A stretch of 64,000 nucleotides of DNA. It comes from Desulfosudaceae bacterium (GTDB lineage: Bacteria > Desulfobacterota > Desulfobacteria > Desulfobacterales > Desulfosudaceae). Shown piece after piece: positions 29,676 through 54,468 of the stretch. The notes beneath the pieces were generated by a model. The model was not told the origin of the DNA, did no database searches, and was given only the letters and a program-made list of their open reading frames with translations. Each line of letters starts with the position of its first letter. Position 1 is the stretch's first letter. The stretch is taken from positions 2,464,001 to 2,528,000 of the forward strand of contig CAXXDV010000003.1 of the NCBI GenBank assembly GCA_963674745.2, in the 5' to 3' direction. Both the position numbers and the translations under genes were made by a program.

Positions 29676-29766
29676 TGTCGGAACGACCAAGGAGAACGAA
29701 TATGATTGATTTTTGTAGTGGAAACAGCTATAAAGGCAATATGAAAAGGGTTTTACGGGGGTCGAC

Positions 29767-31314: not shown

Positions 31315-31345
31315 GAAGGGGACCGGGTCGGGCCAGGCGAATACA

Positions 31346-32506: not shown

Positions 32507-32523
32507 AGCCTGACTCCAGTTTT

Positions 32524-32730: not shown

Positions 32731-32885
32731 GCTAAAATCCTTTTTATTGGTTGTTTTCGTTGTCTTAGAATTTACGCGAGCGTGTCTTTGGCTGAAGAGG
32801 AGATCGTTTCATCAATCGTCAATGTCCCGGATTCATCTATTCTTCTCCGTGTCATCCATTGTGAGAATTACCGGGGGAATAATCT

Positions 32886-33500: not shown

Positions 33501-33611
33501 TGGTTCCCCTAATTTTTTTTAGTCATTTATGGCGATATGCCCGGAAGCCCCCTGTTTCAGGCGAGAACAATTCATTCAGCAGGGTGTCGGTTGTCTCTTC
33601 TTCAGGGCCTA

Positions 33612-34646: not shown

Positions 34647-34704
34647 AATAGTTCCTTATACTTTTGTGTGGTGGTGCTGATCCTGAAGCAATGGCAGGGG
34701 GTTT

Positions 34705-35547: not shown

Positions 35548-35569
35548 AATGCTATGGTTCTCCTTTTTT

Positions 35570-36610: not shown

Positions 36611-36626
36611 GCGATCCCTCTTAAAA

Positions 36627-37451: not shown

Positions 37452-37489
37452 CGTTTATCCTTCTCATTTATTATGTCTAGAGATTTATT

Positions 37490-38332
37490 TTAATTCTGCT
37501 CATGAGTCGATGTTAAATACATCTTAATATTTTCCGCCTTGGAATAAGTTCCATATAAAGGGATTCCTTGTGGTATAAGGTTTTTGCCTGGCTCAGCATC
37601 CCCAATCATAATTCGGATACTTCCTCTTATATTTGTCGTAGAAGGTTGCTTTTGATCTTTAGGATCAGTTCCAGGCCTTCCAGATACAGATCTCACAGTG
37701 ATAACCCTTGGCCCTATTGATGGCGGTTTAAGGAGGAAGAGGGGACCGTCCATTGGCCATTCTTGGGTTATCCATACAGGTGCTGGTATTTGTTCAGGTG
37801 TAAATTCAAGGCGGATTCTTGTTTGGCCCTTATCGACAACTTCTCCTGTCCAGGAATTTCCTGATTGCTTCAGCGTTACGCTATCAGCAAGATATTTGGG
37901 ATGCCCCATGGTACGTCCGGCCCAAACTGGTACCCACTTGCTTTCCGGCATCGTAAGACAATACCAGCCCGCTTCACCTTTATAGGAACATCGGATCTTA
38001 ATATATGCGAGTTGGTAAGGGGTGAGCGGCCATGGCCCGACCTCAATATTATCCAAAACACCTACCATTACCATGGGATGATCGGGCATATTAAATTGCT
38101 CAGGCAGAAGTTTTCTGTAAAGGGTTAAGTCTTTCGGTTCAACCAGAGCAGTTATATTTTGTTGTGCTCTAAAATTATTTTGCGTTGAAGCGGCCATATG
38201 CATAGCTTTTTCTGCAAGATCGCCTTCAATTATCGAATACTGCCCGTTGGCGGTACGATTGTAAAAGAAAATCGATAAACCTAACAATATAATCAAAGAA
38301 AGACATCCCATTACTAATAGCTTTTTTTTCAT
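37490..38332 (-). CDS. Acetoacetate decarboxylase-like superfamily protein with N-terminal anchor
   Basis: LRKLLP-like segment, Y...M, AGRTMGHPK Schiff-base Lys motif; N-terminal TM/signal. Confidence 0.65.
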   Translation of the reverse strand: MKKKLLVMGCLSLIILLGLSIFFYNRTANGQYSIIEGDLAEKAMHMAASTQNNFRAQQNITALVEPKDLTLYRKLLPEQFNMPDHPMVMVGVLDNIEVGPWPLTPYQLAYIKIRCSYKGEAGWYCLTMPESKWVPVWAGRTMGHPKYLADSVTLKQSGNSWTGEVVDKGQTRIRLEFTPEQIPAPVWITQEWPMDGPLFLLKPPSIGPRVITVRSVSGRPGTDPKDQKQPSTTNIRGSIRIMIGDAEPGKNLIPQGIPLYGTYSKAENIKMYLTSTHEQN

Positions 38333-38389
38333 TTTACTTGTCTCCTTTTTTATTAAATATAAAGAACGCCTGATTGAATCAATAACTAA

Positions 38390-38446
38390 ACCATATGTGA
38401 CCGCTAAGTATTGACCATATGTGAATATAATTTGACATTTTGTGAA
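38390..38446 (-). promoter_or_regulatory. Conserved island promoter/operator, copy 2
   Basis: Minus strand TTCACAAAATGTCAAATTATA-TTCACATATGGTCAATAC...TATGGT, facing the 38332 gene run. Confidence 0.8.
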
Positions 38447-38560
38447 AATATGAATTTAAAAAATACTGTGCGATACAGAAAAAGCATAAAGTACAAATGT
38501 TTATCGTGGGATTGATGCTGCGGAATACGGGAAGCGAGACGGGAGACGTTTGCAGGAACC

Positions 38561-39610
38561 CTAAAAGGAATGATTCTGCCGGTACTCACCGGGGGTAAAA
38601 CCCGTCCATTTTTTAAATGCCCGGTTAAACGCACTTTGCTCGGAGTAGCCGAGCAGGAATGTAATATCGATAATAGGTATGGGGGATTGTTCGAGCAGCT
38701 GTATGGCGTGCTCTCTTTTTACCTTATCCAGTATGTCCTGATATGTTACGCCTTCTTTGTTTAACTTGATCTGAAGGCTTCTTTTGCTCATGGCAAACTG
38801 ACCGGAAATGGTTTCTATGTCTGTCTTCCCGGAAAGCAAATTCTGAATGATGGCGGTTTCAACCTCTCCGGAAAACAGGTCTTCACGATATATCTTTTTT
38901 TGAAGTTTTTCAGCATATGACTTAAGCGTGTCGAGGATTTCAGCATTGGCGACCAGGACAGGAAGATCCAGATACTTTTTATTAAAGGTCATCTTATTTT
39001 CCGGCTGATTGAACAGCACGGGTATTTTAAAAATACGGTCATGCTCTTTCGTGTCTGTTGGAGACGCATGAATAAACTGAACGCTGTCAAGACTGATCTC
39101 TTCCCCGGTCAGGCGGGTTAACAGATTAATATAATATGCAAAATGGCCTTCAATAAATTGTCGAAGTTCATTCATATCGGTAATTTGATATTGCAATTCA
39201 AGAGACAGGGATGCAGTACTTCCTTTCTCGGAGAACACAGGTATGCATAAATCATGCATCAGGGGGTAATACTTGCAGAAATTGGTCAATGCTTCTCCAA
39301 GGGTTGGAGAGTTAAACGTGATCACATGCATGGCGTCCATAACATAATCGAATACTTCTCCTAGGTGCAGCCCTAAATCGGGGTCATGAATGAGATTCAG
39401 GAGTTCAGTTGCCAAATAGTGACACTTATGGGCGGGTAACCGCTCATTAGGGGCCTTAAGTATATCTGGATCAAAACCCATTCTTTTAAAAAATATCAAG
39501 GGATCAATACCAAACCTGTCTCCCTCCTTGATAAGTATATTAATAAAATCAACCGAAACACTCGGTTCTTTTATGGATCGGGTTCGGCTTTCAGTCAACT
39601 CATTCGACAT
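38561..39610 (-). CDS. AraC family regulator (OruR/Arabinose_bd_2 type)
   Basis: GLHLGE, SPTLGEAL, C-terminal LLGYSEQSAFNRAFKKWTGFTPGEYR; start set at ATG 39610. Confidence 0.92.
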   Translation of the reverse strand: MSNELTESRTRSIKEPSVSVDFINILIKEGDRFGIDPLIFFKRMGFDPDILKAPNERLPAHKCHYLATELLNLIHDPDLGLHLGEVFDYVMDAMHVITFNSPTLGEALTNFCKYYPLMHDLCIPVFSEKGSTASLSLELQYQITDMNELRQFIEGHFAYYINLLTRLTGEEISLDSVQFIHASPTDTKEHDRIFKIPVLFNQPENKMTFNKKYLDLPVLVANAEILDTLKSYAEKLQKKIYREDLFSGEVETAIIQNLLSGKTDIETISGQFAMSKRSLQIKLNKEGVTYQDILDKVKREHAIQLLEQSPIPIIDITFLLGYSEQSAFNRAFKKWTGFTPGEYRQNHSF

Positions 39611-39706
39611 ATTCGATCTCTTCTTGATGGCATGTTGGTCTGTTTTTCTAAAAATACGCCGCACTTATTATTTTCAGGATATCAATCTATATTTTAAATT
39701 CATTTT

Positions 39707-39943: not shown

Positions 39944-40744
39944 TTGAAAATCTGGCTGGATATGCATATCGTGGGAAGCCATTTAAGACGGTTGGGCCCT
40001 CTGAGAGTTACCATCGGCGGCGGTTCAATGTATCTGAGTCTGCCCTTGTTTCTGTTCGCTCACCTGGTGTTTATTGAACTGCTTTTAAACCGGATATTAA
40101 CGCCGTTACTGGGCCTTCAGAAGCTGAAAACAACCAATTACATCGTCCTCGACCGCCACCGGACAAAAGGGTTGTCCCGGTTTGACAAATTAAATTGTGT
40201 GTTTTGCGGCTATGCCAACGGTATTTCGGTATTATTGAACGAAAAAATCTGTCAACTTGCTGAACGCAAAAAAGAGCTGGGATCCTTTAGTCCATCATAC
40301 AACATTGTTTTGTTTATAATTGTGGCTGTCTTTCTGCCATTTATGGTAGTTGTGAAATTTGCAGGCATGAACATCATTTACGATATCCTTGTGTCACGTC
40401 CCCTTTACATGCATAGAACCCGGACAAAAGATATCAAGCGTAAAATTCTCAGCACCGGTTCTGCTGATATGTTTAATCAGAACACCTTATTTGATATGCT
40501 GATTCTTCATTCAAAAATAATCGTCATCAGGTTGATAGACGCGCTTGAGCAAATTGAATCAGCATGGTGCCCCCTGAAACATAAGAAAGTCGGAGAAAAC
40601 GTTAAGTATCCGTTACACCACCGGAACTTCTTTGAACCGGATGATCTTGAAGCCATGAGAAGTTCGCTTTATCTGAACGGCACTGTTTCAGACAAAAAAC
40701 CCCTGGTTGAAATTAAAAATCCCGCATATCCTTTAGACAGATAA
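39944..40744 (+). CDS. Hypothetical membrane protein with CxxC and WCPxKH motifs
   Basis: YIVLDRH..KLNCVFCGYANG and E..WCPLKH; TM segments; start uncertain. Confidence 0.65.
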   Translation: MKIWLDMHIVGSHLRRLGPLRVTIGGGSMYLSLPLFLFAHLVFIELLLNRILTPLLGLQKLKTTNYIVLDRHRTKGLSRFDKLNCVFCGYANGISVLLNEKICQLAERKKELGSFSPSYNIVLFIIVAVFLPFMVVVKFAGMNIIYDILVSRPLYMHRTRTKDIKRKILSTGSADMFNQNTLFDMLILHSKIIVIRLIDALEQIESAWCPLKHKKVGENVKYPLHHRNFFEPDDLEAMRSSLYLNGTVSDKKPLVEIKNPAYPLDR

Positions 40745-40833: not shown

Positions 40834-40890
40834 TTCACAAAATGTCAAATCATATTCACATCTGGTCAATACTTAGAGCTCAAATATGTT
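40834..40890 (+). promoter_or_regulatory. Conserved island promoter/operator, copy 4
   Basis: TTCACAAAATGTCAAATCATA-TTCACATCTGGTCAATAC...TATGTT. Confidence 0.8.
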
Positions 40891-40943
40891 CTAGGGTAAT
40901 CATACAACCGAGCTTTTTTACAAATTGGAATAAGGAGAGCCTC

Positions 40944-41765
40944 ATGTTTAAAAACAAAACCATACTCATCACCGGCGGGTCATCCGGGCTTGGACTGGGG
41001 TTGGCTCAGGCACTTTTAGAAAGAGGCGCGCGCCTGATTCTTCTGGCCCGCACGCCAAAAAAACTGGAACAGGCAAAAGAGCGCCTGCTGAAAAACGTTC
41101 CCAACGGAAATGTAGATATCGTCCCCGTGGATGTAAGCGACCGCGAGACGTTGCACGAAGCGCTTGACGATGCTCTGAAAAGGCACCCCTCCCTGGACAT
41201 GGTCATCAACAATGCCGGGATATTAAGGGAAGGTTATTTTGAAAAACTGGCGGTAACGGATTTTGAAGAGATGTTCGGCGCCAACTACTTCGGCTGTCTA
41301 TATATAACGCGGATCACCCTGCCTTACTTGAAAAAATCCCGGGGCCGCCTGATCAACGTTGCATCTGTGGCGGGATTAACCGGCGGATTTGGACTTTCCG
41401 CATACGGCTCATCCAAATACGCGCTTGTTGGATTATCTGAAACATTACGCTGCGAACTAAAGCCACAGGGTGTTACCGTCCAGGTGGTATGCCCCCCGGA
41501 ATTTCTATCTCCCATGGTTGAGGAATTGGATACCTATCGGACACCGGAAAACCTGGCGCATACAATTATGATTCCCAGGCTGTCCCTGGATACTCTGGTG
41601 AAAGATACAGTAAAAGGCATTGAAAAAAACAAATTCAGGATTATCCCCGGCTGGCGGACACGATTGATGCTTCTCGGGGCGCAGCACTTTCCCGGTATCA
41701 GCCGTTTTTTTGCCGACCGGGTAATCAAAAAAGCCTATGTCGGTCCCGACCAGCATAATGGTTGA
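40944..41765 (+). CDS. SDR oxidoreductase (3-ketodihydrosphingosine reductase-like)
   Basis: ITGGSSGLG, NYFG, GLSAYGSSK, CPPEF.SP; ATG 40944 after AAGGAG. Confidence 0.85.
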   Translation: MFKNKTILITGGSSGLGLGLAQALLERGARLILLARTPKKLEQAKERLLKNVPNGNVDIVPVDVSDRETLHEALDDALKRHPSLDMVINNAGILREGYFEKLAVTDFEEMFGANYFGCLYITRITLPYLKKSRGRLINVASVAGLTGGFGLSAYGSSKYALVGLSETLRCELKPQGVTVQVVCPPEFLSPMVEELDTYRTPENLAHTIMIPRLSLDTLVKDTVKGIEKNKFRIIPGWRTRLMLLGAQHFPGISRFFADRVIKKAYVGPDQHNG

Positions 41766-41897: not shown

Positions 41898-42677
41898 ATG
41901 AAAACGGCACTCATTACCGGCGCGTCAAACGGCATTGGCCTTGAACTGGCCCGATTGTTTGCAAAAGACAAGATCAATGTCATTCTGGTCGCACGCAGTA
42001 AAGACAAATTGAACCGTATTGCCAGTGATTTTGAGCAGCAGTATGGCATCAAGGCGTTACCTGTCTCTGCCGACCTTTCCAGGCCCGGGTCGAGTCATGC
42101 GCTTTTTGAAGAAATCAGCCAGAACAATCATATGGATGTCGAGTTTCTTGTCAATAATGCCGGGGTTGGCATTTGCGGCACCATAAATGACACCAATATT
42201 GAACAAACATCAGCTATGCTTCAGCTCAATATGGTGAGCCTGGCGGAACTGACCATGCTGTTTCTGCCGGGGATGAAAAAAAAGAGAAGCGGTCGTATTT
42301 TAAATATCGGTTCTACTGCCGGTTATGTAATGCCTCACGGCTATGAAGTTGCCTATGCCGCAACAAAGTCCTTTGTGGTCAGCTTTTCAGAAGGCCTGCA
42401 TTTTGAACTGAAAGGGACGGGCGTTTCCTGTACCCATTTGAGCCCCGGCCCTACTCAAAGCAGTTTCTTTGACACGGCCGGTGCGAAAAGCGATGCCCGG
42501 TTACGGAACATGCTGATGGACACGAGGGTTGTGGCGCAAAAAGGGTACCGGGCAATGATGGCCGGGAAAAAGCACACGATCCCCGGCATTACCAATAAAG
42601 TGTTTGCATTTCTGGCCAGCCGGGTATCTCCATCTCGGAGACTGGTTTATACCTTATCCGGTGCGTTTGTAAAGTAG
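41898..42677 (+). CDS. SDR oxidoreductase
   Basis: TGASNGIG, NNAG, YAATK, PGPT. Confidence 0.9.
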   Translation: MKTALITGASNGIGLELARLFAKDKINVILVARSKDKLNRIASDFEQQYGIKALPVSADLSRPGSSHALFEEISQNNHMDVEFLVNNAGVGICGTINDTNIEQTSAMLQLNMVSLAELTMLFLPGMKKKRSGRILNIGSTAGYVMPHGYEVAYAATKSFVVSFSEGLHFELKGTGVSCTHLSPGPTQSSFFDTAGAKSDARLRNMLMDTRVVAQKGYRAMMAGKKHTIPGITNKVFAFLASRVSPSRRLVYTLSGAFVK

Positions 42678-42854: not shown

Positions 42855-43721
42855 ATGTCGCTATTGTTTGTCGAAGAATCTCATCATCCAGGTGTTCCCG
42901 AAATACAGCGTTTTGATGCCACGTCTGTTTATATTATGGTAAAGCGCCCTTCTTTCTCAGGAAGGGAACGGTTTAAAAAAAAATTGTTGTCCGGCTTTGT
43001 GGAACAGGTCAGGTCTGTTGGATCCGCTTTAAATTATACCGCATTTAAGCAGCATCATCTTGTCAGGAGCGGTGCGTTTGCCGCCATTTCCTATATTGCG
43101 ACTCGAAAGCACTTGAATGTCTCATTGCTGAGCCGCATCCGCGGCCTGACACCCCCGAAGCCGTATCATGTTTCCTTGTTTCCATATTATGACGCGGTGA
43201 TAGAATTTCAATTTGCCGACCGGTTGTCAAATAAACAGATAACAACGATCAAAGACCTTGCCCGTTATCTGGCCGGTAAGTGTAAACGGGTTTCCGTCAT
43301 GGAGAGTAATGTCCGCTATCAGGCATTCGACGATAAGAGCCCTGCCAATAAGAATCCTTTTCATATGGTGTTCATTTCACAGGAGCCATCTCATATTGCA
43401 CGTGAAAAAGCGCAAAAACACTGGATAAGTGATCATGCCGCTTTTGTCGTTAATCATGTCAAGTATACAAAAATGATACGCTATCGGATTTCCCATGCAA
43501 CCCTTGATAAAAAAAGCGCATTTGAAAACAGGTATGGCGGAATCGCGTTTGTAGAATTTAAAGGCCTGCCGGCTTTTATGCGTAACATGCTCAATCCCAA
43601 TGCGGTAAGGCTCAACAATTCAATCGTGCTGGATGAAATGAATTTATCGGCAGAGTCCAGAATTATGCTGATGAAAGAATACGATCTCGGGGCTAAAGGG
43701 AGCGGAAAGGAGGACACCTGA
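42855..43721 (+). CDS. EthD-like tandem-domain protein
   Basis: KRP..S...F, YDAVIE.F; HW...HA..V...RY.ISH, YGGIA.VEF, ..DE.N. Confidence 0.55.
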   Translation: MSLLFVEESHHPGVPEIQRFDATSVYIMVKRPSFSGRERFKKKLLSGFVEQVRSVGSALNYTAFKQHHLVRSGAFAAISYIATRKHLNVSLLSRIRGLTPPKPYHVSLFPYYDAVIEFQFADRLSNKQITTIKDLARYLAGKCKRVSVMESNVRYQAFDDKSPANKNPFHMVFISQEPSHIAREKAQKHWISDHAAFVVNHVKYTKMIRYRISHATLDKKSAFENRYGGIAFVEFKGLPAFMRNMLNPNAVRLNNSIVLDEMNLSAESRIMLMKEYDLGAKGSGKEDT

Positions 43722-43745
43722 TTCAGGCAAACAAGGGGGTACAGT

Positions 43746-44273
43746 ATGACTGAAGACGCAACCATGAACAATCAGAGCAGGCGATCGTTTTTCAAATCGA
43801 GTTTTAAAATGCTTACCGCCATTGGCCTGGGCGGAATATTTTACAGCGCTGCCAGATTTCTCGGTTCTGATTCGACTCCGGAGACAGGCCATAGCCATGC
43901 TTTTGGTGCCTTTCATCCGGACAATGAACGCATGACCGGATCAGGCGGCGGACTTCGCGCCTCAAAGGCCGCTGACGGTCGATATGAACTTGAGACTGAA
44001 TCCGTCCCCGCAGGCGTTGGCGCCGTTGTGTCTGCAGGAAGCCTGCCCATACTGGTAGTCCACGGGACGAACGGTTTCAGGGTATTTAACGCCACCTGCA
44101 CTCATCTTGGATGCCTTGTGAAATGGGATCCGGCGGCCAACATGTTCATCTGCCCCTGCCACGGCGGAAAATATGATGCAAACGGTCAGGTCATTGCCGG
44201 CCCACCTCCGAGTGCCCTTAAAGAACACACCGTTGCTGAAAAAGACGATATGATCAGAATTGCCATCACATGA
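43746..44273 (+). CDS. Rieske [2Fe-2S] protein with Tat anchor
   Basis: SRRSFFK, CTHLGC, CPCHG, GPPP. Confidence 0.93.
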   Translation: MTEDATMNNQSRRSFFKSSFKMLTAIGLGGIFYSAARFLGSDSTPETGHSHAFGAFHPDNERMTGSGGGLRASKAADGRYELETESVPAGVGAVVSAGSLPILVVHGTNGFRVFNATCTHLGCLVKWDPAANMFICPCHGGKYDANGQVIAGPPPSALKEHTVAEKDDMIRIAIT

Positions 44274-45517
44274 CAAAAAACATAATCGACACCTTTTTAA
44301 ACCGCGTTCGAGTCAGGCTGAAAGCAGCCGGTACTGTAAAAGCGCAGATTTTTTCCCGTTCCACCTTACAGCCGGAGAGCCGGCTTGATTACCTGGCCTA
44401 TTCCGGGACAGTCATTGCGGTACTGCTGGTGATTCAGTTTGCAACGGGCGTGCTGCTTTTACTTCATTATGAACCCTTTCCCTCGCGTGCGTTCTCATCT
44501 CTGCTGACCATCAGGAACGATGTTGAGTACGGACTGTTGTTTTCCAACCTTCATTCCGTGGGTTCCAAGCTGATTATACTGGTGATGTTTATTCACATGT
44601 TCAGGATTATGCTGGTTTCTGCCCACCGCGGCCCACGGTCCCCCCAGTGGTATGTCGGCGTTGGTCTCGCTTTTTTAATGCTTTTTACCGGTTTCTCCGG
44701 ATATCTTCTGCCCTGGTCCCAGCAGTCTTTCTGGGCCTGTGTTGTCGGTACCGAGTCGCTTCGCGTTTTTCCCGTCATTGGAAACACCGCCACATGGCTT
44801 CTACGGGGCGGTTCCGAAGTTAACGGCCTGACCCTGACCAGATTTTACTGGCTTCACATCACCCTGCTCCCCATTTCAATCATATACCTGGCATGGCTGC
44901 ACATAAAAATGGTCTGGAGAACAGGCGTGGCCGGGCCGGCAAAATCTTTTGCGGACGTGGCCACCGAAAATTGCGTGGGCTGCGGCAAATGCCGACAGGT
45001 CTGCTCGTTTAACGCGGTTTCCATGAAAGAGGATGGGGACAAAAAAGACAAACCGCTGATTGATCCTTCCAGATGCAATGGTTGCCGGGCCTGTGTGGAG
45101 GAATGCCCCAACGCCTGCATCTTCCTGTTCAAGGGAACAGAACCGTGCCGGTTGGAGCCCATATTTCCGGATAATATTGTCAGGAGAATGCTTGCGGTCT
45201 TCATTACAGTGGTAGTTCTTTTCGGATTTTCGTATTTCGGCCACGCTTTTCACAAGATCCCGGCCGACCCCATGCTGACACCGGAACGGATAAAGCCCGA
45301 CTGGTATTTCCTGGGGGCGTATCAATTCCTGAAAGCACTGCCAAGCGAAACCTGGGGGATACTGGCAATGCTGGCAATCTGTATCCTGATTGCGATTCTG
45401 CCGATTATTGACAAGTCAGGTTCCAGAAATCCCCGGCGTCGACCTGTATATATGCTGCTTGTTATTGGCGGTATTTCAGGGTTTATCATATTCACCTTCT
45501 GGGGATGGGTTTCCTGA
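44270..45517 (+). CDS. Cytochrome b (b6 + subunit IV fused) with inserted 2x[4Fe-4S] ferredoxin
   Basis: Four heme His, GYLLPW.Q.SFWA, CVGCGKCRQVC and CNGCRACVEECP, IKPDWYF (PEWY-type) motif. Confidence 0.9.
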   Translation: MTKNIIDTFLNRVRVRLKAAGTVKAQIFSRSTLQPESRLDYLAYSGTVIAVLLVIQFATGVLLLLHYEPFPSRAFSSLLTIRNDVEYGLLFSNLHSVGSKLIILVMFIHMFRIMLVSAHRGPRSPQWYVGVGLAFLMLFTGFSGYLLPWSQQSFWACVVGTESLRVFPVIGNTATWLLRGGSEVNGLTLTRFYWLHITLLPISIIYLAWLHIKMVWRTGVAGPAKSFADVATENCVGCGKCRQVCSFNAVSMKEDGDKKDKPLIDPSRCNGCRACVEECPNACIFLFKGTEPCRLEPIFPDNIVRRMLAVFITVVVLFGFSYFGHAFHKIPADPMLTPERIKPDWYFLGAYQFLKALPSETWGILAMLAICILIAILPIIDKSGSRNPRRRPVYMLLVIGGISGFIIFTFWGWVS

Positions 45518-45518
45518 C

Positions 45519-46316
45519 ATGAAAAAATATTTTTTCCTGCTATTCCTCCTGCTCGTCCTGGTTTCAAAAACAACGGCACAGGACAGATTATTTCTGCTCC
45601 AGGACAACTGCATTAAATGCCATCTGTGGTGCGAGACAAAAAGCGGCGAAAACTCGGTTGTCAAATGGAAAAGGAGCGTTCATTTCAGGCCGGATACCGC
45701 CTGCGCCGACTGCCATGGCGGCGATCGGCTTTTATATCTGGATTTTAAAGCCGGACACATGGGAATGCCTGACAGAAACCAATCAGTAGGGATGTGCGAA
45801 CAGTGTCATGAGCAGGCTGTACGTGATTTCATAGGCCGCAAGGTGTCGCAGACAAAAAACAATAAGTGCACGGTAAGCTGCGTTGACTGCCACGGGCATC
45901 ACCAGATTGAAAAACCGGATGCTCCGGCCATGTTCCAAAGAACCTGCCGTAAATGTCATTCTCCGGACAAAGCCGCCGCGATTGCAAACACGATACAAAA
46001 AACAGAATCCCGCCTGGCATTTGTTGAGGCGGAAATAAAGTCCCACGAAACATCCGGACTGCCGGTTCTGACCCCGAAGGAAATGCTGAAAGATATTCAA
46101 CGGCAGTATGCGCGGGGATTTCACAAAAATACGTTTTCAAAACAGGAACCGTTTCTGACTGGAGAATTGTCATATGCAATAGATGATCTTGAAGACCGTT
46201 TGGGCCGTTCAGCCCCGAACCAATGGCATATTCAGGGGTATATGGTCATAGCCTTTCTGGGCCTGATCTGTGTTTTGCTGACGGCCTACTTAGCGACCCT
46301 GAAAAAGAAAGAATAA
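45519..46316 (+). CDS. Pentaheme cytochrome c with signal peptide and C-terminal TM anchor
   Basis: CIKCH, CADCH, CEQCH, CVDCH, CRKCH; start ATG 45519. Confidence 0.88.
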   Translation: MKKYFFLLFLLLVLVSKTTAQDRLFLLQDNCIKCHLWCETKSGENSVVKWKRSVHFRPDTACADCHGGDRLLYLDFKAGHMGMPDRNQSVGMCEQCHEQAVRDFIGRKVSQTKNNKCTVSCVDCHGHHQIEKPDAPAMFQRTCRKCHSPDKAAAIANTIQKTESRLAFVEAEIKSHETSGLPVLTPKEMLKDIQRQYARGFHKNTFSKQEPFLTGELSYAIDDLEDRLGRSAPNQWHIQGYMVIAFLGLICVLLTAYLATLKKKE

Positions 46317-46335
46317 AAAATTTGGGAGGAAAATC

Positions 46336-46674
46336 ATAAACGACACATGCCAAGACAAGACAAACTGCCCCTGGACAGGAAGGATCGCCCTGATCCTCGC
46401 CCTTGTTGCTGTTTTTATGGCGTTTAAGGCCGGGCATTCCTCAAAAATCAACGCCATAACCAGCATCAATGAGATGATAACGGACAAGGTCGTACCCCAG
46501 ATGGCCAGGGCCACCGAAAGGGATGTCATCGGCCATATCTACGATCTGAAACGGACCATGGTTACCCTTGAGGAGATAAAGGAGACCACGGCCAACGAGG
46601 ACGTCAAAGCCATGGTGGACAAAATCCGCAAGGACATTGAGGAACTTAACGTCAAACTCTTTGTGCATGAATAG
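46336..46674 (+). CDS. Small single-TM coiled-coil protein (probable ATA start)
   Basis: GGAGGA RBS 5 nt before an in-frame ATA at 46336, which adds TM segment RIALILALVAVF to the 46417 ORF. Confidence 0.6.
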   Translation: MNDTCQDKTNCPWTGRIALILALVAVFMAFKAGHSSKINAITSINEMITDKVVPQMARATERDVIGHIYDLKRTMVTLEEIKETTANEDVKAMVDKIRKDIEELNVKLFVHE

Positions 46675-46679
46675 GGGGT

Positions 46680-48545
46680 ATGGCCATGCCTGATAAGGAC
46701 AAGCCGGAAAACATTTTCCAAAAACCGATCAACCGCCGTAATTTTTTAAAAATAAGCGCTGCCGCAGCAGCGGCCGGCGTAATGGGGCCCGGACTTTCAG
46801 GCTGTGCCCCGGAGATTTACCGGGGCCATTACCCGGATGTGCCCGAAAACCATGTCTCGCTTTCGCCCAACGGGAAAAGTGTGCTCATCCTGGGCGGTGG
46901 TTTCGGCGGCATGCACGCGGCCTGCGAACTGCTTGACCGGGGTTTTGAAGTCACGATTATCGAAAAATCAAGCATGCTCGGGGGAAAACTCAAGAGTTGG
47001 CGGGATCCCGGGTTCGGCATCCCGCCCACGGATGATCCCAACTGGAAGGGATATCCCAGGGATCACGGTGCGCACGCGGTGTGGGGGTTTTACAACAACC
47101 TGAGAGAATTCATGGGCAGACACGGCTATAAACTGGCGACCTTCCCCCGGGAATCCACCATGTACAATTTTCTGGATAAAGACGGTTCCCAGGCTGTCAT
47201 GGGTTCTGCACCCACATGGCCCGGCCCCCTGGCAAATCTTCAAAGAGGCCTTGAGACAAAACATGCCATTGAAAAATTAACCGGAGAAGATCCGGGCGCC
47301 ATGCTGTACATGAACAAAATCTTTGGCTTTGACTATGAGAGCAAGAAGCAGCGGGCCTATCTGGACAGCATTTCTTTTCCCGAGTGGGCGCGACTGGTAG
47401 GCATACCGGACAAGCTGATTTATAAGTTCTTCGGTCCCACGTCTGAAATGGCCATGTTCGACCACATCGATAACACCAGCGCGCTCTATATGCTGACAAC
47501 GCTGAGCCTGGGCTCGGGCAGTTATAGGGACATGTGCGTTGATATTTTCACCCACCCTCCCGGCGAAACCTATGCCGAGCCCATTGAGCGCTACATCCTG
47601 GCCAAAGGCGGAAAGATCATTTATGACATGCCGGTCATCAAGGTCAATCATGACGGCAGAAAGATTAAGAGCGTCCTTGCCGGTGATGAAAATTTTGTCC
47701 CGGGTGTGAAAAACTGGAAATGTAATGTCTGCGGATCAACCTTTCCTTCGCCGGCCAAGCCGTTCAGATGCCCGGTATGCGGTGCCCCCATTACCCAGAT
47801 CAGGGCCCTGTCTTCAGGCCCGCCTAAAGAATACCTGGCGGATTATTATGTGGTTGCCATGGACACGCCCGGCGCCAAACAGGTGGTGGCAAAATCGGGG
47901 CTGCTGGGGGACACCTATTTTGACAATATCATGAAGCTGGATGCGACCGGCGTCTATGTTGTCAATTTATGGTATGCCGACTGCAATGCATGGGAGCGCC
48001 GTTTTCCCAAACATGGTGATTTTTTCGCTTCCGGATTCAAGTTTCTGGGCATCACGCTCAACTGGGCGGTTTCTCGAAAATCCAAAGACGGACAAGACAG
48101 ACAATACCTTGTACCGGATTATCAGGGCAAAAACATCAACGTGATTGAAACCCAGATAGCCAATACCGAGCGGGTGGAGAACAAATCAGACGAAGAAATC
48201 GCCCGGCTGGTTCACGAGGAGTTATTGTGCGTGATGCCGGATTTACCCGTGCCGACGGATTTTTATGTCAACCGGTGGGACACCTATTCACCCCAGCGGA
48301 CCGGGTACGAGGCCCTGCGACCCGATATTCAGAGCCCGGTAGACAACCTGTTTTTCATCGGCGACTGGGTTCTGACAAACCATGAAAGCGTTTATATGGA
48401 GAAAACCAACGTGGCCTCAAAAATGGTGACCAACCTGTTACTGGACAAGATCGGACAAAAACAGGGCCGTATGAAAATACTGAAAAGCGGCGATCCCGAC
48501 CTTACGATGAGGGTACTCAAAGCGTTAAACAATCCATACCCGTAA
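46680..48545 (+). CDS. Tat-exported lipoprotein FAD oxidoreductase, CrtU/zeta-carotene desaturase-like, with rubredoxin-like insert
   Basis: NRRNFLK Tat motif, LSGC lipobox, GGGFGG...LGGK, HGAHAVWGFYNNL, CNVC-x12-CPVC, NLFFIGDWV..YMEK. Confidence 0.8.
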   Translation: MAMPDKDKPENIFQKPINRRNFLKISAAAAAAGVMGPGLSGCAPEIYRGHYPDVPENHVSLSPNGKSVLILGGGFGGMHAACELLDRGFEVTIIEKSSMLGGKLKSWRDPGFGIPPTDDPNWKGYPRDHGAHAVWGFYNNLREFMGRHGYKLATFPRESTMYNFLDKDGSQAVMGSAPTWPGPLANLQRGLETKHAIEKLTGEDPGAMLYMNKIFGFDYESKKQRAYLDSISFPEWARLVGIPDKLIYKFFGPTSEMAMFDHIDNTSALYMLTTLSLGSGSYRDMCVDIFTHPPGETYAEPIERYILAKGGKIIYDMPVIKVNHDGRKIKSVLAGDENFVPGVKNWKCNVCGSTFPSPAKPFRCPVCGAPITQIRALSSGPPKEYLADYYVVAMDTPGAKQVVAKSGLLGDTYFDNIMKLDATGVYVVNLWYADCNAWERRFPKHGDFFASGFKFLGITLNWAVSRKSKDGQDRQYLVPDYQGKNINVIETQIANTERVENKSDEEIARLVHEELLCVMPDLPVPTDFYVNRWDTYSPQRTGYEALRPDIQSPVDNLFFIGDWVLTNHESVYMEKTNVASKMVTNLLLDKIGQKQGRMKILKSGDPDLTMRVLKALNNPYP

Positions 48546-48687
48546 ACCGGGATGGCACAGTTAGGGCTATGAATAGATTTCCGGACGATTTCCGAGGTCA
48601 GTATATCTAATTCAATCTATTAACAGCGAAAATTAGTCAACTAACAAAGGCTCATTTTTGATTCTTAACATATTTACAGGGGGGATT

Positions 48688-49530
48688 ATGCTTACAGTAG
48701 ATTGGGCCTGGACGTATGCTTTTGGCGCAGGATTCGCGGCCTGCGCGGCAAGACAACTGAAAAAAGAAGAAAAACCGTTTGACAACCAGTGGTATGTTTT
48801 TACGCTTACTTTTTTTTCGGTTTTTTTCGTACCCGCATGTGTTTACCTCTTATGGGAACATCCCCAATGGGAAAGCGCGCAGCTGGCCAAAACGTTTACT
48901 GACCTGCCTGCCTGGCTGGTGACCGGTTATGCGGTCACCAATGTCACGCAGGGGATCCTGGGCTTTTGGGTTTCATTCAAACTGATTAAAAAAGGGAATT
49001 ACTACGCCGCCCACGCCAACTGGATGGCCGCCTGGATCCTCATGTGGTTCCTCGCTTTCTGCGGATGGGATTGTACCGGCTACCAGCGTTGGCTTTATGA
49101 CATGAGTGTAAACAACGGTCAATACTGGACACCCGGCACACACATGGGTGTCCGATTTTTCTATGCCAGCAAGATCTGGTGGACACTGGTGGTCATGGGG
49201 ATCTTTTTCGTCCCCATGCTGATTCACGGCTCTGTCAGCTTCGTCCGCAACGGCTTTAAGGAAGACCCATCCATTCCAGCCGGAACTGCCCCCGGCCCCA
49301 TCAGGATCCTGGCTGTTGTTTTTGGCGCACAATATGTTGTCTGCCTGGGGCTGGCAATCCTGGCCACGCTGTGCGTCATGGGCTTACGGAACCTGACCGG
49401 CAGTACGCTGACCGGTTACCTCATTGGCGTTCCGCTTTTTTCTATAGCAACCTACGTTCTGCTTTTCAGAAGGGGCATGCCCATGAACTTAATTGCCAGG
49501 CAATTGTATGTTAAAGAACCGGGGGAATAG
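48688..49530 (+). CDS. Multi-pass membrane protein of unknown function
   Basis: About 7 TM segments, Trp-rich; VD..W.YA.GAGFA..A.RQL N-terminus; ATG 48688. Confidence 0.7.
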   Translation: MLTVDWAWTYAFGAGFAACAARQLKKEEKPFDNQWYVFTLTFFSVFFVPACVYLLWEHPQWESAQLAKTFTDLPAWLVTGYAVTNVTQGILGFWVSFKLIKKGNYYAAHANWMAAWILMWFLAFCGWDCTGYQRWLYDMSVNNGQYWTPGTHMGVRFFYASKIWWTLVVMGIFFVPMLIHGSVSFVRNGFKEDPSIPAGTAPGPIRILAVVFGAQYVVCLGLAILATLCVMGLRNLTGSTLTGYLIGVPLFSIATYVLLFRRGMPMNLIARQLYVKEPGE

Positions 49531-49713: not shown

Positions 49714-49729
49714 TGGCACAGATATTGCT
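49714..49729 (+). promoter_or_regulatory. sigma54 promoter
   Basis: TGGCACAGATATTGCT, near-consensus GG-N10-GC. Confidence 0.85.
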
Positions 49730-49812
49730 ATTAAGCACTTAATCAGCTTCGACCGTTTCGGTTTTAAAACGCATATCGTAACAACACTATTTTGGGGAAG
49801 GACGAAAAGATC

Positions 49813-51876
49813 ATGAAAGAAAACGTTTTCAGAAGAATGGTAATCCTTACATTTATTACCCTGACATTGCTGTTTCAATCAGCCGCTGTATTTGCAGTTG
49901 CCCCACCACCCCCGCCCCCGACCTATACCCTGACCGTCAACAACGGCAGTGGTGACGGGGCTTATCCGGCTGATGCGGCAATCAATATTGTTGCCGATGC
50001 AGCTCCGGCCGGCCAGGTGTTTGACCGCTGGGAAGTCGTTTCCGGAGGCGCCCGTATCGCTTCTGTCCGGGTTGCCAGCACCACCGTTACGATGCCGTCA
50101 AATAATGCCACTGTGACCGCGACATACATTGAACCGCAACCGCTTGATTTCAGCTGCCACCCCTATTCCCTGTCAACCTGCGCCATGCCGTACCCGAACG
50201 ACCTTTTTACGCCTGAAGAGATGACAGCTACCTTTTCAGAAGATCTTTTGTCACAGCTCCCTGAAAGTCTATTTCCAACAACCATTCTAAAAGACCGCGA
50301 TGGCTGGTCACCGGTAACGGCCGTATTATTTGAGGTACCCTATAAAATAAACGAATGTGCGCTCCCGCTCAATGGGGATAATGTTCTGAAGGTATTTGAC
50401 ATGGACGACCCCTATGCACCGCCTGTTCCTGTCAGGGTTCGACTCAGCCAGCCTGCCGAAGTAGAGAAGCAAAACTGGCAGATATTGAACCCGGGAGCAA
50501 AGACCCACCAGGTGATTGAAGCATTTCCGCGATCCCGCTTCCCCTTCGGGCACCGGATGGCGGCCGTGCTGACCACCGCCCTGAAGGCAGCCGACGGTAC
50601 CATCCCCACAGCGCCGGAGATACCCGAAGCATATGAAGGCCTGGCCTACGAACTGGCGGGTCGCGGCGTTGATCCGGGTACCATTTTATCCTTGACCGAG
50701 TTTACCATTGCCACGGAAGAAAACACCACCGGCAAGCTGTTTGATATGATCGATGTTATAGAAAATCAGGGTCATCCTGTCAAAGACCTTAAAATAGAAA
50801 GATGGTTAGGCCTGGATGTTGATACAGTCGTGAGAGGCAAAGTCCGCCTGACCAGTTTTCGTGATCTGAATGGCGATGGCATGGTTCACTTTGAAGCGGG
50901 AGATACCGGTAAAGAATACTGGGCTGATTTTGACCTCTTTTTTCCCTCTGAAGCCGATTGGGGGTCGGTGCCTGTCTGTATATACGGACACGGGCTGGAT
51001 GGGGATAAGGAAACAGCTGTTGTCTTCGCGGAATTAAATGCCGATGAAGGGATAGCCACATTGGCCATTGACTGGCCCAACCACGGTACCCGTTCATCAA
51101 AAGACGGCGGTCAAATGAAAACGCTGTTTGCCCCTGAAACCGTAAGTTTTATTACCGGCATGGCCGTTCAGGGTGTTCTTGATTTCCATTCTGTGATGGC
51201 CGCCATACGGGGCAGCCTTGCGGACCTGGACGTGATGCCGCCGCATGAGTGGTATAACTCCTTGAGGCCGGGATATGGCAGGCCGGATATTGATACAGAC
51301 AGGATATATTATATGGGCACCTCCCTGGGCGGTGTTTTCGGGAGCGGCTATGTCGGCAGTGCCACCGGCCTTGACGGCGCTTTTCTGCAGGTCTCCGGCG
51401 TGGGTATTATGCGGACACTGGCGCTTTCCGGCCTGTATGAAAGTATGGGATTTTACAAGATGGTGCCCATGGGCGCCACCCCTTCTGAAACGGCACTTCT
51501 CTTTAACTATGTGCAGAACATCGTGGATGTGGCCGATGGCGCCAACCTGATCCACAATATTCAGGATCCGAATGTCGGCGGGCAGAAAACACCGCTGGTG
51601 GTCCAGTATGGCCTGCATGACAGTATTGTTCACAATGACTCGTCTGAGGCAATGGCTGAAATCGCGGGCCTTAAACAGGTTCCGCCCGTTTGGAGAGACT
51701 TGGCTTATATCCCGAACACATGTGACGATGACGCTCCTTTTGCCCTTGTCCAGGGTACTTGGCCGGTCCCGTCCATTGAGGTTCTTGGACTTGACCTGGC
51801 GATGATCCAGCACATCTCCTTTCTTACACCCAGCGCGCTGTACTATTACGAGAACTGGCTGGCAAATATAAAGTAG
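49813..51876 (+). CDS. Secreted lipase-like alpha/beta hydrolase with Pro-rich linker and bacterial-repeat domain
   Basis: Signal peptide, PPPPPP, YTLTVNNGSG repeat domain, PYPND, DGWSP, HGL, IDWPNHG, GTSLGG, D..V.N, H. Confidence 0.75.
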   Translation: MKENVFRRMVILTFITLTLLFQSAAVFAVAPPPPPPTYTLTVNNGSGDGAYPADAAINIVADAAPAGQVFDRWEVVSGGARIASVRVASTTVTMPSNNATVTATYIEPQPLDFSCHPYSLSTCAMPYPNDLFTPEEMTATFSEDLLSQLPESLFPTTILKDRDGWSPVTAVLFEVPYKINECALPLNGDNVLKVFDMDDPYAPPVPVRVRLSQPAEVEKQNWQILNPGAKTHQVIEAFPRSRFPFGHRMAAVLTTALKAADGTIPTAPEIPEAYEGLAYELAGRGVDPGTILSLTEFTIATEENTTGKLFDMIDVIENQGHPVKDLKIERWLGLDVDTVVRGKVRLTSFRDLNGDGMVHFEAGDTGKEYWADFDLFFPSEADWGSVPVCIYGHGLDGDKETAVVFAELNADEGIATLAIDWPNHGTRSSKDGGQMKTLFAPETVSFITGMAVQGVLDFHSVMAAIRGSLADLDVMPPHEWYNSLRPGYGRPDIDTDRIYYMGTSLGGVFGSGYVGSATGLDGAFLQVSGVGIMRTLALSGLYESMGFYKMVPMGATPSETALLFNYVQNIVDVADGANLIHNIQDPNVGGQKTPLVVQYGLHDSIVHNDSSEAMAEIAGLKQVPPVWRDLAYIPNTCDDDAPFALVQGTWPVPSIEVLGLDLAMIQHISFLTPSALYYYENWLANIK

Positions 51877-51906: not shown

Positions 51907-51950
51907 AAAACAATGGCCGTGGCAATTATGCCACGGCCATTTGTTTTTTT
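51907..51950 (+). terminator. Intrinsic terminator
   Basis: AATGGCCGTGGCA-ATTA-TGCCACGGCCATT followed by a T tract. Confidence 0.85.
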
Positions 51951-52136: not shown

Positions 52137-54227
52137 TTACCTCTTCCAGCCGTAAGGGATACCCAGTTTTTTCATTTTGCTGCGGAGCGTATTGGGTTTT
52201 ATCTGCAGCAGTTCGGCGGCGCCCCCGGGGCCTGCCACTTTTCCATGGGAAAGGGTCAGCGCCTTGTTTATGTGCCTGATAGTGGCTTCTTCCAAACCCG
52301 GGAAATCATCGTCCTGGCTGCCATTTTCCGGGGTGTTTTTATCAGGAGACTGCTGGAAGACATTTTCAAACGATAAGGGCCTTCCCATGCTCAGGATCAG
52401 TTCCCTTTCGATCACATTTTCCAGCTCGCGAACGTTGCCCGGCCACTCATATTCGGTCAATCGCCTCATGGCGCCCGGTGTCAAAGACGGCTTTTCGTGC
52501 AGATTCAGCTCACGGGATCTCTTTTCAATGAAATGATCCACGAGAGCCGGGATATCAGCACGCCTTGCCCGAAGGGGTGGGATTCTGATGGGGAAAACGT
52601 TCAGGCGGAACCACAAATCCTCCCGGAACTCCCTGGATGCAACCAGTTCCTCGAGATTGCGGTGGGTGGCGGCAATGATGCGGATGTTGACCGGTATGGT
52701 GTCCTTCCCGCCGACACGTTGAATAACTTTATGTTCAATCACCCGGAGCAGGCGGACCTGAACCGGGGGAGGCAGTTCCCCGATCTCATCCAGAAAGACG
52801 GTTCCGTTACTGGCCCTTTCAAAGTGGCCTTTTTTCAGGTTTGTTGCGCCGGTAAAGGCCCCTTTTTCGTGGCCGAACAGTTCGCTGTCCACAAGGGTAT
52901 CCGGGATGGCGCCGCAATTGACCTTAATCAAGGGGGCGTCTTTGCGTGAAGATTCCAGGTGAATATAATTTGCCACCACCTCCTTGCCAACACCGGTTTC
53001 GCCCAGCAGCAATACGGGACTGTCCTGCCCGGCAACGAGGCGGGCGTTGTCCACAACCCCTTTCAGGCCAAGGCCGGCCCCGACTATGGTCTGATTCAGA
53101 TTATCCTTCAGTTCTTCGTGCAGGTTTTTATTTTCAGCTTCAATGATGTTCTTCAGCCGGATGACCTCACGGTGTTTGATATTGTTTGAAAGGGCCAGAA
53201 CGAAAGGATCATGGAGCATTTCAAAAAGCTTTTTGTGCTCTGCTTTGTAGCGACCCTTTCCTTCCAGCCCTACCAGCGCAATACCCACAAGCTTTTTCTT
53301 GTGAATGAGGGGCATGGCAATAAGCGAAAAGTCATTTCCGAATATTTTGGTATGTTGATGTGCTACAGGGTGGCGTTCGGGATTGTTTATTATAAGTGTT
53401 TTAGGAGGGTCCCCAACACCCATGAATTGGGGGTCTTCCGAGACATTCAGGACCGGGAGAAGGGAATCCAGCTTTGAAAAAAAGAAGCCATAGTGCTCGG
53501 CCAGCACACGTTCTGACTGCAATTCCGGCTCTGTCTGCCAGACATGGAGCACGTCCGCAGGCAAAAACCGGCTGAGGTATTGAGCGCAATGCGTGACCCC
53601 GGTTTTAAGGTCTAAATGGCCGCACAACCGCCGTGTGACCTGTCGGAAGAATTCGTTTTTATCAGCCACGGGCTCTTTTTGGGAAGGGTGAAGCTTTTTC
53701 CTGTCGTAATCTTTAATGAGTGCGTCCGCCACCAGTTGAAGGGGCTCTCTCACAGGCGTGAGCAGGCGGGTGTGTTCTTCCGTGAATTTATCCTTTTCGT
53801 CAGCGATGATCATTGCGTTGGCATAAGAACCCTCAGCGTTTTTGAAAATAATATACACGGCTGACCAGTCAAACAATCTGGCACGTTCAGAGATTGACGT
53901 CCCGACGATGTCCCTTTCCGGATGATTTATAACCCAGATATCGGGGTTGTCGGCACTGCATGCCAGGTCAATTATCTCCTGGGGTTGTTCGTACATGAAA
54001 TTTGTTTTTTCCGCCCCTGTGCTCACGGCCTGGGCGATAATCCTGACCAGGCGAAGATCATGATGATTATGAAAGATGCTTATTTTCGTCAGAGGAGCGA
54101 ATTCTGAAATATAGTTGAAAATATCAAAAAGCGCTTCTTCGATGTTGCCCTCTTCCAGGACACGCCGCCTGACCTTATTCAATAATTGATCGGAATCCAT
54201 TTTTATCATCGGTGAGTGCTCATCCAT
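52137..54227 (-). CDS. sigma54 enhancer-binding protein with tandem GAF-like sensor domains
   Basis: Internally repeated N-terminal domain (INHPERD / INNPERH), [22 protein letters not shown], Fis HTH. Confidence 0.92.
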
Positions 54228-54452: not shown

Positions 54453-54468
54453 TGGCACAGAGAATGCT
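54453..54468 (+). promoter_or_regulatory. sigma54 promoter
   Basis: TGGCACAGAGAATGCT (GG-N10-GC), divergent from the EBP gene. Confidence 0.82.

Follow-up and report, generated by a model that had tools for sequence, protein, structure and literature searches.

The window analyzed here is a stretch of 64,000 nt from a Desulfosudaceae bacterium (contig CAXXDV010000003.1, positions 2,464,001 to 2,528,000, forward strand), and it contains a conserved cassette of five genes at positions 43746-48545. These genes encode a Rieske protein, a cytochrome b that carries a 2x[4Fe-4S] domain, a pentaheme cytochrome c, a small protein with one transmembrane (TM) segment, and a flavoprotein (Table 1). The reading that we tentatively favor is that they encode one dedicated complex, in which a periplasmic flavin dehydrogenase would deliver electrons by way of cytochrome c and the Rieske protein to menaquinone, and menaquinone would be reduced by confurcation at the Qo site. 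The source genome is 99.96% complete and consists of 3 contigs. Its dsrA scores above the family cut-off and dsrB lies beside it; the host is therefore a sulfite/sulfate reducer.

A first-pass annotation of the sequence had described this region as a set of tightly packed redox genes, which is what we find. The seven open reading frames (ORFs) of 42855-49530 are all present and all on the forward strand, and after correction of gene starts the spacing from 43721 to 46680 ranges from -4 to 24 nt. The Rieske gene begins 24 nt after its upstream neighbor, g1, and overlaps the cytochrome b gene by 4 nt. One nucleotide lies between cytochrome b and cytochrome c, whose true start is ATG 45519 and not TTG 45390. 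The corrected start of the small gene restores a gap of 16-19 nt after cytochrome c, and 5 nt separate the small gene from the flavoprotein gene. Translational packing of this kind suggests that the products form one dedicated membrane complex.

The Rieske protein matches PF00355 in Pfam (44.2 bits, cut-off 20.3). Both cluster-binding boxes, CxHxGC and CxCH, are present in it and in all eight cassette homologs, and the G-Y signature (residues 2 and 4 past CxCH) is found in seven of eight cassettes. The accessible text of Kao & Hunte 2014 (PMC4122944) links this signature to a Rieske potential of about +200 mV, and a potential of about +200 mV is predicted for the cluster of the window type.

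The cytochrome b is a single, unsplit protein in which Pfam places PF00033 at residues 40-218 (140 bits), Fer4 families at 227-288 and PF00032 at 331-412. The inserted ferredoxin domain spans about residues 224-306, and the Fe-S part is most similar to RnfB. It contains two CxxCxxCxxxC motifs, at residues 235 and 269, and two are also present in 8/8 homologs. The four heme-ligand histidines (H95, H109, H196 and H211) are invariant in the cytochrome b alignment (A4), and all four align with those of mitochondrial cytochrome b. The insertion sits between the residues aligned to mitochondrial positions 215 and 241, that is, in the loop that joins helices D and E. In bc1 and b6f structures this loop faces the electronegative (cytoplasmic) side of the membrane, beside heme bH and the Qi site, and the 2x[4Fe-4S] domain is therefore predicted to be cytoplasmic. 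The first-pass annotation had linked the complex to cytoplasmic low-potential carriers, which is a fair deduction from this position of the clusters. The mitochondrial His five residues past the bH ligand aligns with a Trp in the window protein; this says little by itself, because b6-type proteins likewise lack that His. The Qo motif, at residue 343, is PDWY in 6/8 cassettes and PEWY in 2/8, and PDWY goes with menaquinol-type systems in the accessible text of Kao & Hunte 2014 (PMC4122944).

This is not a canonical bc1 or b6f complex: the third subunit has five CxxCH motifs, cytochrome b carries the extra 2x[4Fe-4S], and the NCBIfam bc1/b6f equivalog scores of the cassette are all below their cut-offs. 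Clusters of cytochrome b with Fer4 number 33 in the protein collection (45-59% identity, plus the window's own cluster); the next cytochrome b after these is 30% identical and lacks Fer4. The host genome also has a second cytochrome b locus (G000:C3:143303-146884, L072), where b6-like and subunit-IV-like genes are split, have neither Fe-S motifs nor the insertion, and adjoin a cytochrome with at least four hemes.

Cytochrome c has five CxxCH motifs, as do 8/8 homologs, and its TM helix comprises residues 243-261; its Pfam matches, to Cytochrom_c3_2/C7, are weak. The small gene as listed encodes 85 amino acids from ATG 46417 and no TM segment, and its homologs are 108-141 amino acids long with an N-terminal TM segment. 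In the window the frame is open upstream of ATG 46417 and encodes a TM segment (RIALILALVAVFMAF) after a GGGAGG Shine-Dalgarno sequence. Because the open frame encodes the TM segment of the homologs and follows GGGAGG, the protein probably starts upstream, at the non-canonical ATC 46333 or ATA 46336, and has about 112 amino acids. The TM-encoding extension agrees with the small TM coiled-coil protein that had been proposed at first pass. The small protein is present in six of the seven loci closest to the window, the same six that have the Rieske genes. In one of these (L006:11698-12885) cytochrome c and the small protein are one continuous ORF of 394 amino acids, a natural fusion, which suggests that the two belong to one complex. 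The gene order of this locus differs from that of the window in that the flavoprotein comes first.

The flavoprotein matches PF01593 (111.9 bits, cut-off 19.8) and PF13450. Its Tat signal is recognized by PF10518 (29.8 bits, cut-off 22.7) and by TIGR01409 (22.3 bits, cut-off 16.7), and the signal region has RRNFLK followed by the lipobox LSGC; the product is a predicted Tat-exported lipoprotein. In a profile of 18 homologs (A1) the Tat arginine is kept throughout the family and the lipobox is confined to the clade with Rieske genes, which suggests a dedicated complex. The knuckle CxxC...CxxC, at residues 348 and 364, has four Cys that are invariant in 18/18 sequences. It matches PF21349 with 25.1 bits, below the cut-off of 26.5, and is a putative rubredoxin-like iron site.

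By sequence, the nearest solved relative of the flavoprotein is rice phytoene desaturase (PDS, 5mog), with E 7e-30 over the N-terminal half. The AlphaFold2 model (predicted local distance difference test score, pLDDT, 84.8) has 5mog as its best Foldseek match too (E 6e-27, TM-score 0.62 by query and 0.82 by target, 19% identity), followed by monoamine oxidases, NicA2 and protoporphyrinogen oxidase. Even the best curated NCBIfam models score far below their cut-offs: HpnE 94.9 against 283.05, zeta-carotene desaturase (ZDS) 88.6 against 622.15, and PDS 55.2 against 569.4. Judged by sequence and model, the flavoprotein is a distinct family of PDS-like fold and not a member of HpnE, ZDS or PDS. 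The earlier label "CrtU-like" is imprecise. The fold is that of a PDS-like FAD enzyme, the best curated models are HpnE and ZDS, and no specific tie to CrtU is seen. No CrtU model is among the 25 NCBIfam matches listed for the protein, and the CrtU name occurs only as an automatic JGI name on 3 homolog clusters. The one pointer to the putative (de)saturation or aromatization of a lipid or isoprenoid proposed at first pass is the PDS-like fold, and nothing specific speaks for aromatization. The flavoprotein gene is duplicated in tandem or nearby in three loci (L008:6056-9872, L021:5624-9746 and L036).

The flavoprotein and the Rieske/cytochrome b genes are co-conserved. Profile A1 found 52 flavoprotein loci in one-genome-per-species contigs, which divide into seven that are closest to the window (L001-L007; 56-66% identity, Desulfobacterota-type metagenome-assembled genomes) and 45 others of at most 43% identity. 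Rieske, cytochrome b and cytochrome c genes adjoin the flavoprotein gene in six of the seven (L001-L004, L006 and L007). Of 200 other genomes sampled from the order, three contain the flavoprotein and the same three contain the ferredoxin-bearing cytochrome b (counted at E <= 1e-60); the other 197 have neither. Neither protein turned up among 400 genomes sampled from the phylum. Of the three cassette-bearing genomes, one is of the same genus and two are of another genus, and the order Rieske, cytochrome b, cytochrome c, small protein, flavoprotein is identical in all three. The co-occurrence is strict; it is not a statistical test, because the kin are few (two genera beyond the window's own genome). 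The co-conservation on which the first-pass annotation had made its system depend is thus seen both in the closest loci and across the order.

A search of metagenome contigs from the cytochrome b side gave five close loci, and the flavoprotein is present in both of those that reach far enough (L073 and L075). These two add little independent weight, because L075 duplicates L002 and L073 shares ORF offsets with L003. Among the 33 Fer4-bearing cytochrome b clusters, 11 list the same longest-contig size as a close-clade flavoprotein cluster. Wherever the contig reaches far enough, the Fer4-bearing cytochrome b is accompanied by the flavoprotein. A weak cytochrome b match in L042 (E 3e-04, opposite strand) was set aside as a probable match to the Fer4 part. 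The flavoprotein of the same-genus genome (G129, locus L059) is 65% identical to that of the window, as is that of a genome from another family, and its flanking genes differ. Because the same-genus cassette is no closer than that of another family and the flanks differ, the pattern hints at horizontal transfer or old paralogy.

In the mechanism that we propose, the flavoprotein would fold with its cofactors in the cytoplasm, be exported by the Tat system and be held by its lipid anchor at the periplasmic face. The predicted redox centers would then form a chain from periplasm to cytoplasm: FAD, a possible Fe(Cys)4, five c hemes, the Rieske cluster, Qo, bL, bH and two [4Fe-4S]. The flavoprotein would oxidize (desaturate or dehydrogenate) a hydrophobic, probably lipid- or isoprenoid-like substrate at this face of the membrane, and the electrons of FAD would leave singly, by way of the Cys4 center and the pentaheme cytochrome c, to the Rieske protein. 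The small single-TM protein could be a subunit with a structural or docking role between the cytochrome and the flavoprotein. At Qo the reaction would be reversed, with menaquinone taking one electron from the Rieske protein and one from heme bL. A ferredoxin-level donor in the cytoplasm would refill the b hemes by way of the 2x[4Fe-4S] domain beside bH, with the membrane potential assisting, and the net scheme would be electron confurcation at Qo. Electrons released by C-C desaturation or allylic oxidation have too positive a potential for menaquinone reduction on their own, which is why the second, low-potential electron would be needed. Sulfate reducers need help to feed high-potential electrons into the menaquinone pool. 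Each half of the scheme has a precedent, described further below: the bc1 cluster with p-cresol methylhydroxylase in Geobacter metallireducens, and the dehydrogenases NicA2 and Pnao, which share the amine-oxidase fold and pass electrons to a cytochrome c.

Several points weigh against this dedicated oxidative complex. The direction of electron flow is derived from a two-residue predictor of Rieske potential together with general background values for the other potentials. PDS-type enzymes normally hand their electrons directly to quinone, and relatives in the CrtI/PDS group include saturases, so that a reductive role is possible. The Cys4 knuckle, with its match to PF21349 below the cut-off, could instead be a structural zinc site. 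One of the seven closest loci (L005) has the flavoprotein and a short-chain dehydrogenase/reductase (SDR) only, with no Rieske genes within 8 kb. Finally, none of the 45 distant flavoprotein loci has Rieske or cytochrome c genes nearby, and since 0/45 have Rieske/cytochrome b genes the flavoprotein itself does not need the complex. The main rival, which we consider unlikely, is the same complex running in the opposite direction, as a menaquinol-oxidizing, Qo-bifurcating terminal reductase. One electron would go from the Rieske protein through cytochrome c to a flavoprotein that saturates a periplasmic double bond or reduces another acceptor, and the other from bL through bH and the 2x[4Fe-4S] domain to a cytoplasmic low-potential carrier. 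The forward direction is the normal one for Rieske/cytochrome b complexes, and the PDS/CrtI superfamily has reductive members, among them HpnE, the best NCBIfam match. As far as the accessible parts of two sources go, PDWY and PEWY are of the quinol-oxidizing type and the clade linked to reverse flow has APWY (Kao & Hunte 2014, PMC4122944), and, as a similar idea, the Rieske/cytochrome b complexes of anammox bacteria have been proposed to generate NAD(P)H (PMC12954380). Compared with the oxidative complex, the terminal reductase fits the PDWY/PEWY motifs better and the predicted Rieske potential worse. Transfer from a Rieske cluster predicted at about +200 mV to a flavin that reduces C=C near 0 mV would be uphill, the b-heme electron would need to run against the membrane potential and still reach the Fe-S clusters, and a sulfate reducer offers no evident acceptor of high potential in the periplasm.

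Two further explanations would loosen the tie between the flavoprotein and the Rieske complex. According to one of them, the flavoprotein is a biosynthetic desaturase of envelope lipids or isoprenoids, for which the Rieske protein, cytochrome b and cytochrome c simply drain electrons into the respiratory chain; another role would then fall to the ferredoxin insertion, such as replacing Qi as an exit to a cytoplasmic acceptor. PDS, ZDS and HpnE are biosynthetic enzymes, and relatives in the Leptospiraceae lie amid genes for lipids and lipoproteins (Lgt, Lnb_N, a fatty-acid desaturase and a steroid-5-alpha-reductase-like protein), although synteny among these loci is not independent evidence. 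The context in the window, in contrast, looks catabolic and regulated, with an AraC regulator, several SDRs, hydrolases, a START protein and a lipase-like gene, and an envelope function would be expected in more than the 3/200 other genomes of the order that have the cassette. We regard this explanation as quite improbable. The least probable of those considered is that the genes are co-traveling neighbors: the flavoprotein would act by itself and reduce quinone directly, as PDS does, and the Rieske/cytochrome b genes would have an unrelated respiratory role. The 45 distant relatives and L005, all without Rieske genes nearby, speak for such an arrangement. Against it stand the identical presence and absence of both parts in the order and phylum samples, the constant company of the flavoprotein with the Fer4-bearing cytochrome b where contigs are long enough, the lipobox specific to the Rieske-bearing clade, and the second, ordinary split cytochrome b locus of the genome, which is available for general use.

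The closest sequence and fold relatives of the flavoprotein, PDS (5mog), ZDS and HpnE, are FAD enzymes whose substrates are long isoprenoid chains and which work at the surface of the membrane. They differ from it in sequence, at 19% identity for 5mog and with scores far short of the equivalog cut-offs. None of them is known as a Tat-exported lipoprotein or as a carrier of the Cys4 insertion, and they pass electrons directly to quinone. p-Cresol methylhydroxylase is a flavocytochrome of another fold class than the window flavoprotein. In Geobacter metallireducens a bc1 gene cluster occurs with a periplasmic p-cresol methylhydroxylase, and a reversed Q cycle that takes up high-potential electrons and reduces menaquinone has been proposed for it (PMC4122944; the case is taken from the accessible text of Kao & Hunte 2014, which cites Peters 2007 and Johannes 2008). 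There, as in the window, the genes of a Rieske/cytochrome b complex adjoin that of a periplasmic flavin dehydrogenase, and the host is a strict, menaquinone-using anaerobe. Unlike the cassette, with its PDWY or PEWY, the Geobacter cytochrome b falls in the APWY clade, and a ferredoxin insertion is not mentioned for it in the accessible text of Kao & Hunte 2014 (PMC4122944). That text also describes a "PDWF-FeS" clade of cytochrome b (Magnetospirillum, Turneriella and Alicycliphilus) which, like the window protein, is joined to 4Fe-4S/ferredoxin-type domains (PMC4122944); a cytochrome b can evidently be connected to Fe-S modules. The clade is set apart by its description, in which the clusters lack a Rieske gene, the motif is PDWF and MvhD/flavin oxidoreductase is fused; in the cassette the Rieske gene is adjacent, the motif is PDWY or PEWY, and the Fe-S domain lies inside cytochrome b between helices D and E.

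The Rieske/cytochrome b complexes of anammox bacteria are comparable in being variant complexes with multiheme cytochromes, for which a coupling between quinol chemistry and a cytoplasmic low-potential product has been proposed (PMC12954380). They have other accessory subunits and occur in another group of organisms, and the accessible text of that source reports neither an exported PDS-like flavoprotein nor a ferredoxin insertion. NicA2 and Pnao, which are structural neighbors of our model, are enzymes of the amine-oxidase fold whose natural acceptor is cytochrome c (PMC9396064, PMC10611581). With CycN in Pseudomonas putida they resemble the proposed system as dehydrogenases of this fold that use a c-type cytochrome. 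As described in the accessible parts of these sources they differ in their soluble amine substrates, soluble monoheme partner and lack of a link to Rieske/cytochrome b, and their identity to the model is 13-14%. The flavin delta-24 steroid desaturase and the limonene dehydrogenase CtmAB are O2-independent flavin enzymes of anaerobic catabolism that desaturate or hydroxylate allylic isoprenoid carbon (PMC11061730). The accessible text of this source places them in a separate soluble class with covalent FMN, states that they are dissimilar to PDS, and treats the natural electron acceptor of anaerobic flavin desaturases as an open question.

No description of the cassette architecture was found in the literature on Rieske/cytochrome b-ferredoxin fusions, on COG3349 and on Rieske proteins with phytoene desaturase, in a search that lay outside most subscription journals. 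Within this range the first-pass view of an undescribed system holds. Cytochrome b-Fe-S fusions without a Rieske protein are already known, going by the accessible text cited above, as are dedicated or variant Rieske/cytochrome b complexes. What the sequences suggest is new is a Rieske/cytochrome b complex with a ferredoxin domain inside cytochrome b that is tied to an exported clade of PDS-like flavoproteins.

Table 1. Coordinates of the cassette genes and of other features in the window.
Feature	Coordinates	Strand	Description
Rieske [2Fe-2S] subunit with Tat signal	43746..44273	+	175 aa; RRSFFK, CTHLGC, CPCHGGKY
Unsplit cytochrome b	44270..45517	+	415 aa; b6-like N-half, inserted 2x[4Fe-4S], subunit-IV-like C-half, PDWY
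Pentaheme cytochrome c	45519..46316	+	265 aa; N-terminal signal peptide, C-terminal TM anchor
Small single-TM protein	46336..46674	+	Probable start; helical conserved C-terminal domain, ends ...VKLFVHE
Tat lipoprotein flavoprotein	46680..48545	+	621 aa; amine-oxidase/PDS-like fold, CxxC...CxxC knuckle
SDR, recurrent upstream of cassette	40842..41765	+	adh_short 173.9 bits; probable true start about 40944
Second SDR, local accessory	41898..42677	+	adh_short 150.3 bits
Remote EthD-like protein g1	42855..43721	+	288 aa; packed against cassette in window
6-7-TM protein	48688..49530	+	Listed ORF 48658-49530; probable start 48688, 280 aa
Cys/His-rich membrane protein	39944..40744	+	266 aa; no recognized family
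ADC-like protein	37490..38332	-	PF06314 61.1 bits
Sigma-54 promoter TGGCAC-N5-TTGCT	49714..49729	+	0 mismatches; upstream of lipase-like gene 49792-51876

Two genes that had been listed at first pass with the redox genes fall outside the conserved unit. The first is the EthD-like gene, g1, which had been taken as a member of the operon; its homologs are absent from every related locus. The label itself is fair but remote. The g1 protein has no Pfam match at E <= 0.01 and no NCBIfam match, and 11 of 23 homologs match PF07110 in their C-terminal half, five of them above the cut-off of 22 bits. The first match in the atlas is a cluster with 50% EthD-carrying members (score 0.92), and the family is small, with 26 representative clusters. 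The second is the protein of about seven TM segments that follows the flavoprotein. It has 6-7 hydrophobic segments and belongs to an independent, widespread family (97 clusters, 28-79% identity, including Smithella, Desulfosudis and Spirochaetes); a paralog of 71% identity is found elsewhere in the host genome, and no homolog is found in any related cassette locus. A 2-mismatch sigma-54 site at 48553 precedes its gene.

Homologs of the first of the two SDR genes upstream of g1 precede the cassette or the flavoprotein in L001, L003, L005, L059, L073 and L076; this recurrent gene was absent from the first-pass annotation. The second SDR is not conserved with the cassette in related loci. The lipase-like gene downstream is a separate transcription unit, because it has its own perfect sigma-54 promoter; a strong terminator (51912-51941) follows it, an adjacent gene (52137-54227, reverse strand) encodes a sigma-54 activator, and the lipase-like gene is not conserved with the cassette. 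A one-mismatch sigma-54 site at 54453-54468 is upstream of a gene at 54522, so that the two sites flank the activator gene. Control of the cassette by this activator was rejected, the perfect site being downstream of the cassette and before the lipase-like gene. The window also has a possible catabolic run at 26169-39664, which comprises a molybdopterin oxidoreductase, several SDRs, a DHDPS-like protein, an FMN-dependent dehydrogenase, a glyoxalase, a START-domain protein and an alpha/beta hydrolase. The idea that 31-52 kb is one steroid or terpene catabolic island was dropped; none of its genes (Mo-oxidoreductase, START, SDRs, hydrolases) is conserved beside the cassette elsewhere.

The distant flavoprotein loci have other recurrent neighbors. 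Homologs of the Cys/His-rich membrane protein (260-290 amino acids) flank the flavoprotein in 11 of the 45 distant loci (L009, L013, L029, L031, L032, L035, L037, L044, L046, L048 and L052), which are from beta- and gamma-proteobacteria and Nitrospirae. The family has the motifs NCxFCGYANG, LEQIESxWCPLKH and YPxHHxxFF, and its invariant residues are H13, H40, C85, C88, C209, H213, H225 and H226. The window protein has no Pfam match worth noting at E <= 1, and its best PDB profile match has E 0.013 over 40 residues. Its AlphaFold2 model has a pLDDT of 68.6, with a best Foldseek E of 0.67 and a best VIA-align Z of 5.9, which is in the noise range of helical models. It shows no similarity to the 249-aa neighbor found in Leptospira (BLASTP E 1.6). 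No member of the family is found in the other three genomes that carry the cassette, and because of this absence the protein may stand in for the Rieske module as a partner rather than belong to it; it may act as the membrane redox partner of the flavoprotein in the beta/gamma-proteobacteria and Nitrospirae. The acetoacetate-decarboxylase-like (ADC-like) family (neighbor cluster c6) flanks the flavoprotein in 9 loci, with PF06314 checked on 3 members, and its gene follows the flavoprotein gene in beta/gamma-proteobacterial loci (e.g., L031:9909-10745 and L009:9746-10729). The flavoprotein, the Cys/His-rich membrane protein and the ADC-like gene are a recurrent trio in distant loci. The window has both of these alternative neighbors, neither of which was in the first-pass annotation; its ADC-like gene is in a divergent operon behind the AraC regulator. 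The 6-7-TM protein downstream of the cassette shows no similarity to the ADC-like neighbor of the beta/gamma loci (E 1.9).

In the Leptospiraceae the flavoprotein relatives are part of a conserved block (e.g., L017:5140-11501 and L025:4527-10886) with a TRL lipoprotein, an Lnb_N protein, an unassigned protein of 365 amino acids, a steroid-5-alpha-reductase-like membrane protein, an Lgt paralog and a fatty-acid desaturase. A protein of about 490 amino acids of the 2-hydroxyglutaryl-CoA dehydratase D-component (HGD-D) type is encoded downstream of the flavoprotein in L001:9884-11347, L008:12836-14308 and L011:9782-11260, directly after it in L001 and L011; L008 adds further HGD-D, CdhC-like and ATPase genes.

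Taken across these loci, the data point to an unrecognized family of periplasmic flavin dehydrogenases in Desulfobacterota, Nitrospirae, beta/gamma-proteobacteria and Leptospiraceae. The textbook examples of bifurcating enzymes based on quinone are the Rieske/cytochrome b complexes. It is conceivable, if rather doubtful, that the cassette defines a new con/bifurcating class of them, in which the Qi side is replaced or supplemented by a ferredoxin port and Qo directly couples three pools: a periplasmic high-potential flavin dehydrogenase (by way of cytochrome c and the Rieske protein), menaquinone, and cytoplasmic ferredoxin-level carriers. A rewiring of the b-heme branch, so far raised mainly for anammox bacteria, would here be written into the cytochrome b gene, and the coupling of Qo chemistry to ferredoxin-level carriers becomes testable in a genome-sequenced sulfate reducer. 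The cassette suggests an undescribed wiring of periplasmic oxidation to the membrane quinone pool. A machine of the con/bifurcating class, if that is what the cassette encodes, would enable a sulfate reducer to oxidize, outside the cell, hydrophobic substrates whose C-H or C-C bonds are otherwise "too positive".

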